Shown: piece after piece, positions 5,825 to 7,321 of the stretch
Numbering within the stretch: position 1 is the stretch's first letter
Layout: the number at the start of each line of letters is the position of its first letter
Virus record (IMG/VR): IMGVR_UViG_2690316002_000018
DNA: 24,368 bases
Direction: 5' to 3' (one strand)
Source of the DNA: a virus
Taxonomy: Duplodnaviria > Heunggongvirae > Uroviricota > Caudoviricetes
Translations under genes and position numbers: made by a program
Notes under the pieces: model-generated
Database searches by the model: none
The model's input: the letters and a program-made list of their open reading frames with translations, nothing else
What the model was told of the DNA's origin: nothing

Positions 5825-5910
5825 CGAATTTCTCCCGTGTACAGGAACAGAGTTAAAAAGCCGGAACCGGAATCAAATCACAGGATGACCATCTGCCAGT
5901 GGCAGGTCAT

Positions 5911-5937
5911 AAAAAAAAGGCCGCGCCATGCGCAGCC
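5911..5937 (-). terminator. Strong rho-independent terminator inside the late operon, upstream of nanS-p
   Basis: Minus-strand RNA GGCUGCGC-AUG-GCGCGGCC followed by UUUUUUUU. Confidence 0.6.
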
Positions 5938-6367
5938 AGAACTCACAAGGAAAATGATAGAAGGAAATAACATTAGTGATGTACGCATGGCGCCTCCCGC
6001 TAAGTTCTGCAATGATCAAACAGAACTCGCTACGTGCCCTTAAAACTCGATCATTTAGCCCCTCCAAGGAGGATTCACCATGCGGTTGATTTTTTAATAA
6101 ACAGTAAACAAAAAAGTCAAGAATTATTCATTCTGTTCTTTCATCATCGGCCACAGCAATACCACAATGCCGCAGACCAGAGCGCCATCAGTCAGTACCA
6201 ACATTATCCTGCTGGTGAAATCCATCATCACCATCACTAAAAGCAGGATCACAACAGCAAGCAGACACAGTTTATAAAACAATGTTCAGAAAACGCATTC
6301 AGCATGCCTAAGGTTCTATTCCTACGAATAGCCAACTTGCAACTTAAAATATTATTTATGCAGCCAA

Positions 6368-6853
6368 TTAAATTCTGGTCCTTACAATATCAACCTGAAG
6401 ATTCTTATCTTGTGCTGATTGATAAATGACAAACCTTTTACTACCTGCATTGAAAGAAGTAGACAAAACCAGACAATTATCATAACGAGCAAGAACATAA
6501 TACCAACCATCATTATAATTAATCATTTCATATTCTTTCTTAAACTGCGGTTTGTAATATCCTGTCAGAAATGAAAAAAGCCAGAAATATGCCACAAAAG
6601 CAATCATCACAATCTCAAAAAAATGTTTTTTTATAAATGGCTTATCATAGAAGCATGATACCGATAAAAATCGCCCATAAGATCTTATCGAAATTGTAAC
6701 CGCCAGCGCAATCGCTGCTGACAGTAGCAAAAGAGGTACCTGAATCTTCTGTCTCAATATAGAAAACTCAATAATTGCCGGCACAAACAATAATTCCACA
6801 GCAAAATAAAGGCGAAATACATTTAGCTCTTGCATAGAATGTTTTCTTTTCAC
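6368..6853 (-). CDS. Membrane protein, C-terminal segment of a split ORF (in frame with 6881..7126)
   Basis: GTG at 6853 or ATG at 6833-6835; several hydrophobic helices then a roughly 55-aa polar C-terminus; AT-rich. Confidence 0.5.
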   Translation of the reverse strand: MKRKHSMQELNVFRLYFAVELLFVPAIIEFSILRQKIQVPLLLLSAAIALAVTISIRSYGRFLSVSCFYDKPFIKKHFFEIVMIAFVAYFWLFSFLTGYYKPQFKKEYEMINYNDGWYYVLARYDNCLVLSTSFNAGSKRFVIYQSAQDKNLQVDIVRTRI

Positions 6854-6880
6854 TGCGAAAAAGAATACAACACCAATACC

Positions 6881-7126
6881 CTAACCGATAAGAAATATAG
6901 CAATGACGATAACTGCAAAAAATAAACTTCTGGCAACATCATCAACACCTGCACCTACAATCCACCATGGGAAGCCGTAGTAAAAAGAAGTACCCCATCC
7001 ATAGAAATAAGCACTCCCCCATCCAAGGCATCCCATGTAGGCAATAAAAAGTGAAGAACTCCTGAGCAGCGCACCATCCTTCATAACCACCCCAATACAA
7101 GATGATAACATTGGCTTACAACTCAT
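6881..7126 (-). CDS. Membrane protein, N-terminal segment of a split ORF (ends at an in-frame TAG)
   Basis: ATG at 7124-7126; aromatic and Gly-rich hydrophobic sequence GWGSAYFYGWGTSFYYGFPWWIVGAG; same frame as 6368..6853. Confidence 0.5.
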   Translation of the reverse strand: MSCKPMLSSCIGVVMKDGALLRSSSLFIAYMGCLGWGSAYFYGWGTSFYYGFPWWIVGAGVDDVARSLFFAVIVIAIFLIG

Positions 7127-7285
7127 AACAAAAGCAATTCAATGCCGTCAAGAGGTTACAGGCTAAAAAAACTCTATTACATTGCAGTCAGCATGTTTAC
7201 TACACAAATACAATTCAGAGCATAAAAACTACTCGGCGGCAGGTTATTGAGACTCATCAATGACATGTAAAAAACGCCCATTATT

Positions 7286-7321
7286 GGTGTCAAGTTTCCC
7301 CAAAGTTATTCAAAAAGTCAA
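7286..7321 (-). promoter_or_regulatory. pR': Late promoter pR' with qut region
   Basis: Minus strand TTGACTTTTTGAATAACTTTGGGGAAACTTGACACCAATAATGGG resembles lambda pR' TTGACTTATTGAATAAAATTGGGTAAATTTGACTCAACGATGGG, immediately downstream of Q. Confidence 0.6.

Follow-up and report, generated by a model that had tools for sequence, protein, structure and literature searches.

Probable use of the PasD1 small-RNA terminator as the first stop behind a lambda-type late promoter with a decayed terminator

In lysogens of phage lambda the late promoter pR' fires constitutively, and the Q protein gives read-through. Constitutive pR' activity in lysogens has also been assumed for the Stx phages (PMC7547250). 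The question raised by the locus described here is where the transcripts of a lambda-type pR' meet their first terminator, and on which side of it the cargo genes lie. The locus belongs to a tailed phage (Caudoviricetes) represented by the IMG/VR record IMGVR_UViG_2690316002_000018, and the whole stretch analysed, 24,368 nt long, is called the window below; its late strand is the "-" strand. Here Q and pR' are followed by a cargo cassette (a membrane-protein gene, a gene for a DUF3927/TciB-like protein and the small RNA PasD1), then by the esterase gene nanS-p and the lysis genes. We concentrated on the terminators of this region, and the features discussed are listed in Table 1.

Table 1. Features of the late control region of the window (all positions are those of the window)
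Feature	Position	Strand	Basis
Q, lambda-type late-gene antiterminator, 207 aa	7364..7987	-	203/207 residues identical to lambda Q; PF03589, E=1.2e-57
pR' and qut region	7277..7321	-	base-for-base alignment with the lambda and HK446 pR'
Junction segment found only in the lambda-Q configuration	7246..7276	-	alignments; without homology to lambda or phage 434
Relic of the post-pR' terminator	7224..7245	-	stem 7242-7239 / 7232-7229 (4 bp), U5 7228-7224; homologous to AACCCGCTGCCGAGTGGGTTTTTTTT, which is annotated as a terminator in phage 434
AU-rich imperfect long hairpin 7220-7172 with U7 7171-7165	7165..7220	-	d=-15.7, noise level
Candidate cargo promoter, TTGTTA-18-TGtTATCAT, extended -10	7102..7131	-	consensus scan, 9/12 + TG
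Cargo membrane protein, 247 aa, phrog_1521 (alternative starts 7126, 7084; pseudogene in the window)	6368..7111	-	
DUF3927 / TciB-like small membrane protein, 52 aa	6124..6282	-	PF13064, E=3e-14; phrog_1470 "TciB-like"
PasD1 small RNA (Hfq-dependent; EHEC homologue EcOnc13)	5911..6083	-	100% identity to E2348/69 pasD1
Strong intrinsic terminator, 3' end of PasD1	5911..5937	-	stem 5937-5919 (8 bp, 7 G-C), U8 5918-5911; d=+52.1
nanS-p-type sialate O-acetylesterase, 645 aa, first gene past the terminator	3887..5824	-	Pfam DUF1737 + SASA + DUF6645

Judging by the match of Q and by the aligned promoter and pause elements, the identity of pR' is real. The open reading frame (ORF) 7987-7364 encodes an intact Q. 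Directly 3' of it lie the -35 box TTGACT (7321-7316), a 17-nt spacer and the -10 box GAAACT (7298-7293), followed by TTGACACC and then by AATAAT and GGG, all in register with the pR' of lambda and HK446 when aligned. This segment holds a -35-like TTGACA (7293-7288), the pause-inducing -10-like AATAAT (7285-7280) and GGG (7279-7277). Lambda has AACGAT GGG where the window has AATAAT GGG (7285-7277), with one additional base upstream in the alignment; the window hexamer is nearer to the consensus. By analogy with lambda, these elements are predicted to have the same functions, with transcription starting at about 7286/7285. The -10 box matches the consensus at three of six positions, against four of six for the lambda TAAATT (the spacer is 17 nt in both), and a consensus promoter scan calls the lambda pR' but skips that of the window; A-11 and T-7 of the -10 box, the -35 box and the pause element are all retained. 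Four mismatches with lambda fall within the 21 nt labelled qut in phage records, the predicted Q-binding stretch. Compared with HK446, about 8 of the 45 positions of 7277-7321 differ, while the adjoining 3' end of Q is nearly identical. The likeness to lambda-type phages ends at about 7277, right past the pause element (about +10).

The terminators were sought with a single-hairpin d-score after d'Aubenton-Carafa, which combines the hairpin energy per nucleotide with a score of the U-tail; we wrote this scorer because the built-in terminator scan demands short loops. An earlier scan that accepted any fold had been dropped as too permissive, since it paired nearly every U-run. Calibration on known terminators gave d=+15.3 for lambda tR', -0.5 for the second lambda hairpin upstream of S, +32.2 for the post-pR' terminator of phage 434 and +24.9 for its equivalent in EDL933, +19.9 for the pre-holin terminator of EDL933, and +28.5 for the post-Rz terminator of the window (1965-1949). 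When 7340 to 5800 was scanned on the "-" strand, which includes the whole of 5825-7321, the sole positive site was the PasD1 terminator, 5937-5919 with its U8, and the built-in scan likewise found this single terminator upstream of nanS-p. The original prediction, made from the sequence alone, had named 5911-5937 as the first convincing terminator of the late strand, and this proved right. From pR' to the end of the lysis genes, positive d values occur on the "-" strand only there and behind Rz.

Between 7286 and 5937 no site reaches a d above zero. The best candidate of the leader, the AU-rich long hairpin of Table 1, scores at the level of chance: among 200 dinucleotide-shuffled versions of the 216-nt leader, -15.7 is reached by 20.5%, 0 by 1.5% and +15 by none. 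It ranks last among the 15 loci of the whole "-" strand with d of at least -16, lies within the band of intragenic chance matches, and folds no better than its shuffles (z=-0.45); the phage 434 allele of this hairpin scores -23.3. The fold of the leader as a whole is no stronger than that of shuffled sequences either (z=-0.42), so that nothing points to a riboswitch- or attenuator-like element. Rfam gave no match between 7286 and 7084 at E<=1 and none at gathering thresholds in the whole window. As a separate observation, all eight substitutions that distinguish the lambda-Q allele from the Q82-type allele over 7183-7220 (phage 434, locus L001 2511-2548) lie in the AU-rich hairpin arms before U7 and raise d from -23.3 to -15.7, and the alleles are identical past 7183. 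These substitutions could partly compensate for the loss of the terminator, or simply be the decaying edge of the mosaic joint.

A hairpin with a U-run does exist close to the promoter, at 7245-7224, and its history can be read from the relatives of the cassette. In phage 434 (OL657226) the cassette is 98.7% identical, starting at window position ~7228, and lies behind a Q of an unrelated family (PF06323; "Q82-like" in the record); a terminator is annotated between this Q and the cassette. The same layout is found in the O157:H7 EDL933 prophage beside lpxR, in O145 RM13514 and in prophage PP2 of the enteropathogenic E. coli (EPEC) strain E2348/69. The intact form of the terminator, AAACCCGCTGCCGAGTGGGTTTTTTTT, has a folding energy of -12.5 kcal/mol, which none of 200 shuffles attains, and scores from +25 to +32 in phage 434, EDL933 and PP2. 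The window form, AACCTGCCGCCGAGTAG----TTTTT, departs from the aligned phage 434 terminator at two places in the stem and one in the loop and lacks 4 nt; its energy is -2.2 kcal/mol, 25 of 200 shuffles are as stable, and its d falls below -30. As far as these comparisons of sequence can tell, 7245-7224 is the decayed remnant of a real tR'-like terminator. By all the measures used it is not a credible terminator, and we infer that it does not terminate.

This qualifies the claim that no hairpin with a U-run precedes the membrane-protein gene: the absence of any terminator above chance stands, while the literal absence of hairpin and U-run does not. Likewise, a terminator between 7126 and 7286, which the original prediction had regarded as fatal to its model, is represented there by a remnant, which neither d-score nor fold energy nor shuffles make credible.

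The strong terminator at 5937-5911 has a folding energy of -15.2 kcal/mol (z=-3.0), is annotated as a terminator in phage 434 and forms the 3' end of a known small RNA (sRNA). The pasD1 sequence of E2348/69 (NC_011601 1060260-1060432) maps to 6083-5911 of the window over 173 nt with no differences, the sequence of the PasD1 Northern probe matches exactly at 5927-5950, and the published synteny, with Q upstream and the esterase gene downstream, is found in the window. Rfam STnc100 (RF02076) gives a full-length match at 6113-5908 with 37.7 bits (E=4e-6), below its gathering score of 47; a common ancestry of PasD and STnc100 has been proposed (Zhu et al. 2026 preprint). PasD1 and PasD2, of ~172 nt, were detected as Hfq-dependent sRNAs in the EPEC prophages PP4 and PP2 (Pearl Mizrahi et al. 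2021, PMC8550237), and EcOnc13, the homologue in enterohaemorrhagic E. coli (EHEC), was located with an Hfq peak in Sp3 (Tree et al. 2014, PMC4104026). In phage 2B8, pasD lies immediately upstream of the esterase gene, and Q lies no more than 10 kb from PasD in over 98% of cases (Zhu et al. 2026 preprint). In EPEC, PasD1 has virulence genes among its targets.

An ORF of 64 aa (5873-6067, "-" strand) lies nearly all within PasD1. Its counterpart in phage 434 is annotated as a "putative membrane protein", RefSeq shows an antisense ORF in its place, and the 64-aa ORF has no family match. It is probably not a gene, or PasD could have a dual function.

How widespread is this arrangement? Among 5426 complete E. 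coli genomes, the cassette is present in 1209 copies in 682 genomes. The lambda-Q junction with the relic accounts for 579 copies in 570 genomes, about one in ten of those surveyed (547 copies at an identity of at least 99%), and the Q82-type junction with the intact terminator for 631 copies in 630 genomes; the two configurations cover essentially all copies, and many genomes hold both. Before the cassette, all scored relic carriers lack a positive terminator and all scored Q82-type carriers have one. The relic carriers include PP4 of EPEC E2348/69, O157:H7 86-24 and the isolated phage 2B8, and in PP4 and 2B8 the leader is identical to that of the window. The terminator-less arrangement is viable and common, as the isolated phage and the 579 copies indicate.

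In the Q82-type layout a pR' of the form TTGCAA-17-TATACT is predicted ~55 nt from the intact terminator (phage 434, L001 2417-2508; EDL933, L005 1440-1525; PP2, L012). In ~630 E. coli genomes this predicts a very short constitutive RNA, which could be an sRNA similar to StxS.

We suggest that these data probably reflect a mosaic joint in which the terminator behind pR' was lost, the PasD1 terminator serves as tR' and the cassette has come to lie in a Q-independent leader. A lambda-type module of Q, pR' and qut is joined right after the pause site (~7277) to a cassette made up of the membrane-protein gene, the PasD sRNA and the gene for the DUF3927/TciB protein. Where the cassette instead follows a Q82-type Q, its other frequent context, a strong terminator is predicted to end the late transcript after ~55 nt; in the lambda-Q setting this terminator has decayed to a relic of 4 bp in a leader otherwise free of above-chance terminators. 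The first effective stop would then be 5937-5911, ~1.35 kb from the start, doing the job of tR': transcripts from pR' would end there in the absence of Q and would run on into nanS-p, the lysis genes and the morphogenesis genes in its presence. In a lysogen, both read-through from pR' and transcription from internal promoters would contribute to the cassette RNA.

The steps of this reading differ in strength. Since no strong terminator other than 5937-5911 lies between pR' and the lysis genes, any regulation by Q must be read-through at that site, and the PasD1 terminator very probably acts as tR' of this phage. The original prediction that nanS-p and the lysis genes need antitermination by Q agrees with the anatomy: nanS-p and S/R/Rz lie behind the barrier at 5937-5911 and the cargo lies in front of it. 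We infer that pR' is constitutive here, that the relic does not stop it and that the PasD terminator is the site of Q action; pR' may in addition drive the cargo in lysogens.

The available evidence on expression comes from published RNA sequencing of uninduced EPEC E2348/69 in the activating condition, a strain that carries both configurations of one cassette, PP2 with and PP4 without the terminator. The DESeq2 base means for PP4 are 6 for Q, 147 for the cargo gene, 8652 for PasD1 and 5 for the holin gene (DUF3927 is not listed and the esterase gene is absent); those for PP2 are 69 for Q, 226 for the cargo gene, 37 for DUF3927, 11017 for PasD2, 102 for the esterase gene and 3.5 for the holin gene. 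In PP4, the counts of Q, cargo and holin genes imply that transcription starts between Q and the cargo gene and mostly ends before the holin gene. An absence of transcripts over the cargo (6368-7126) in uninduced cells would have spoken against the original prediction; with a leader identical to that of the window, PP4 does show cargo RNA.

The same data also supply a point against our explanation: PP2, with its cassette behind an intact terminator, gives as much or more cargo and PasD RNA than PP4, which points to promoters within the cassette, rather than pR', as the main source of this RNA. The one available data set suggests that cassette RNA in a lysogen does not require read-through from pR'. 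Further points also weigh against our explanation. The -10 box GAAACT is poorer than that of lambda, and pR' may therefore be weak; weak hairpins with long U-runs (U5, U7) can terminate partially without being seen by the score; and H-NS or Rho could act on the AT-rich leader. The comparison of the two prophages is itself weakened, since their cargo genes differ at 3 of 744 nt (99.6% identity) and reads are not cleanly assignable. The PasD copies differ at 4 nt and are only partly distinguishable according to the authors (PMC8550237). With so few differences, and with the handling of multi-mapping reads left unstated in the main-text methods of that publication, we rejected per-copy expression in EPEC as a decisive test.

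A rival reading, which the PP2 counts favour, is a cassette that works as an autonomous moron and sRNA unit, in which its own promoters (7131-7102, and ~6120-6090 for PasD) supply the RNA of the lysogen and the share of pR' is small, either through Rho or H-NS acting on the AT-rich untranslated leader or through weakness of pR'. The extended -10 promoter-like site upstream of the ATG at 7084, kept in both configurations, the TTGACT upstream of PasD, the fall of G+C to 29-40%, which is typical for morons and H-NS targets, and the three-of-six match of the pR' -10 box are all consistent with such a unit. Nevertheless, we consider this reading unlikely: the near-identity of the cargo copies makes the per-copy counts unreliable, the promoter sites are mere consensus matches whose number does not exceed that in shuffles (4 found, 8.3 expected), a leader RNA with more G than C (the "+" strand has a negative GC skew) would be a poor substrate for Rho, and the late-gene expression of phage 2B8 needs an active pR'.

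A different possibility is that the locus has remained like lambda, with the relic at 7245-7224, or the hairpin and U7 at 7220-7165, or both, stopping most pR' transcripts and leaving leader RNAs of ~60 or ~120 nt. Both sites do combine a hairpin with a U-run, a double change (C>U and G>A) preserves pairing in the relic, and the eight allele substitutions concentrate in the second hairpin and improve its score. However, real terminators in the calibration all score about zero or higher, and neither the 4-bp relic nor the second hairpin, matched by a fifth of the shuffles, comes near that, which makes this quite improbable. It is very improbable that this prophage lineage simply has a dead late promoter, with the loss of the terminator then of no consequence. 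One could cite for it the imperfect -10 box, the four mismatches in the Q-binding stretch, the many carriers that are cryptic prophages and the pseudogenized cargo of the window; but the isolated phage 2B8 has the same pR', the leader is conserved at a level of at least 99% in 547 genomes, and Q, A-11, T-7, the -35 box and the pause element are all retained.

The cargo gene of the window deserves a separate comment. The original prediction had treated 6368-7126 as one membrane-protein gene, which has to be corrected: an in-frame TAG at 6883-6881 (TGG>TAG, base 6882) splits the ORF into 6881..7126 and 6368..6853. This change occurs in none of the 1209 cassette copies, the best match being 98.9% with one mismatch in 91 nt, and by these alignments the gene is a private pseudogene of this source. 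The intact protein is annotated in relatives as WP_001302581.1 (247 aa); no Pfam, PADLOC or NCBIfam match was found for it, and phrog_1521 is a family of unknown function. A search of the literature for TciB/DUF3927 and for a genome paper on phage 434 returned nothing useful.

With respect to the usual features of morons, the composition is deviant (G+C 29-40% over 6200-7300, against 49-62% in Q and nanS-p), and the cassette has its own downstream terminator at 5937-5911 (d=+52). As for a promoter of its own, the candidate at 7131-7102 is a consensus match, the same in both configurations and compatible only with the ATG at 7084, and the TTGACT in front of PasD is located at 6120; cargo RNA is present in uninduced EPEC and could stem from such a promoter or from pR'.

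Some observations concern the rest of the window. Between nanS-p and the holin gene there is no positive-scoring terminator (3174-3887 on the "-" strand, 3400-3800 on the "+" strand), whereas both phage 434 and EDL933 carry one in this interval. The Northern probes for PasA and PasC, sRNAs that usually occupy this position, have no match in the window. Another prophage sRNA, the 66-nt HnrS, was considered as a candidate for the terminated pR' transcript of this module; it has been assigned to Sp9, Sp10 and Sp12 (PMC13502914). In the early-right operon, 10499-10520 ("-" strand) forms a strong intrinsic terminator (GGCCUGCUGGUAAUCGCAGGCC + U5, d=+25), which is presumably a target of N-type antitermination.

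Compared with the known systems, the locus combines familiar parts in a different order. With lambda it shares Q (98% identity), the -35 box, the pause element and GGG in register, and the scheme in which a promoter fires constitutively and Q lets transcription pass a terminator further on. Neither the lambda leader body nor tR', located in lambda at 192-194 nt from the start, is found in the window, where the first strong terminator comes at ~1.35 kb with three genes between. The ~200 nt that the original prediction had quoted for lambda holds: the promoter (L003 753-781) and the terminator hairpin (924-974) are ~190 nt apart. Over a comparable distance the window offers d=-15.7 at best, against +15.3 in lambda. 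Phage 434, the O157:H7 prophage CP-933K/Sp3 and PP2 share with the window the cassette (98-99% identical from ~7245), the same terminator and then an esterase or holin gene; they differ in the unrelated Q (PF06323), in the promoter and in a strong terminator ~30-55 nt past the predicted start, so that their cassette lies behind the stop.

The closest functional parallel is StxS (Sy et al. 2020, PMC7547250), with a constitutive pR' transcript that in lysogens runs no further than the first terminator and whose 3' end forms a stable sRNA bound by Hfq. The StxS leader, however, has 258 nt without genes, and stx lies behind tR', while the leader of the window would be 1.35 kb long, contain coding genes and end with PasD1, which might then be made from pR' transcripts. 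The sRNA itself does not differ from PasD1 of E2348/69, and the PasD literature cited here does not mention its terminator as the first stop of pR'. Morons downstream of pR' are also well known (Juhala et al. 2000; PMC4104026): low-G+C cargo between Q/pR' and the lysis genes, a terminal terminator and adjoining sRNA genes recur here, and the general layout of Q, pR', moron coding sequence, sRNAs and a conserved ORF was described earlier (Tree et al. 2014, PMC4104026). The classical moron, however, is defined by its own promoter, which here is just predicted, and this lineage has lost the terminator that the phage itself had in front of the moron.

The components, namely lambda Q/pR', morons at pR' and PasD, are known already. 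What appears new, in that the cited literature does not describe it, is the loss of the promoter-proximal terminator in a lambda-Q lineage and its substitution by the terminator of an sRNA. In its boldest form the proposal would apply to ~10% of complete E. coli genomes, in which a lambda-type pR' has been left without a terminator of its own and relies on that of PasD1 as tR'. The constitutive leader, a mere by-product in the case of lambda 6S RNA and StxS, would then have expanded into a 1.35-kb lysogenic-conversion transcript that encodes the membrane protein and TciB and is processed into PasD1, and Q would switch this transcript from making the sRNA to lysis. This full version is possible, and we put it forward tentatively.

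If internal promoters dominate, the arrangement would be a common mosaic scar that leaves regulation unaffected, and in any case it is a modest variation on a well-known design of late control. If, however, pR' transcripts do cross the cassette, the position of a moron relative to tR' would decide whether it is expressed in the lysogen or upon lysis: Stx2, behind tR', needs Q, while the cargo described here would lie ahead of the first terminator. A single recombination at the pause site would then suffice to flip a moron between the two modes of expression. PasD1 would gain a second route of synthesis, paralleling that of StxS, and part of its output would be set by pR'. With PP2 and PP4 in one cell, EPEC E2348/69 is a ready natural experiment.

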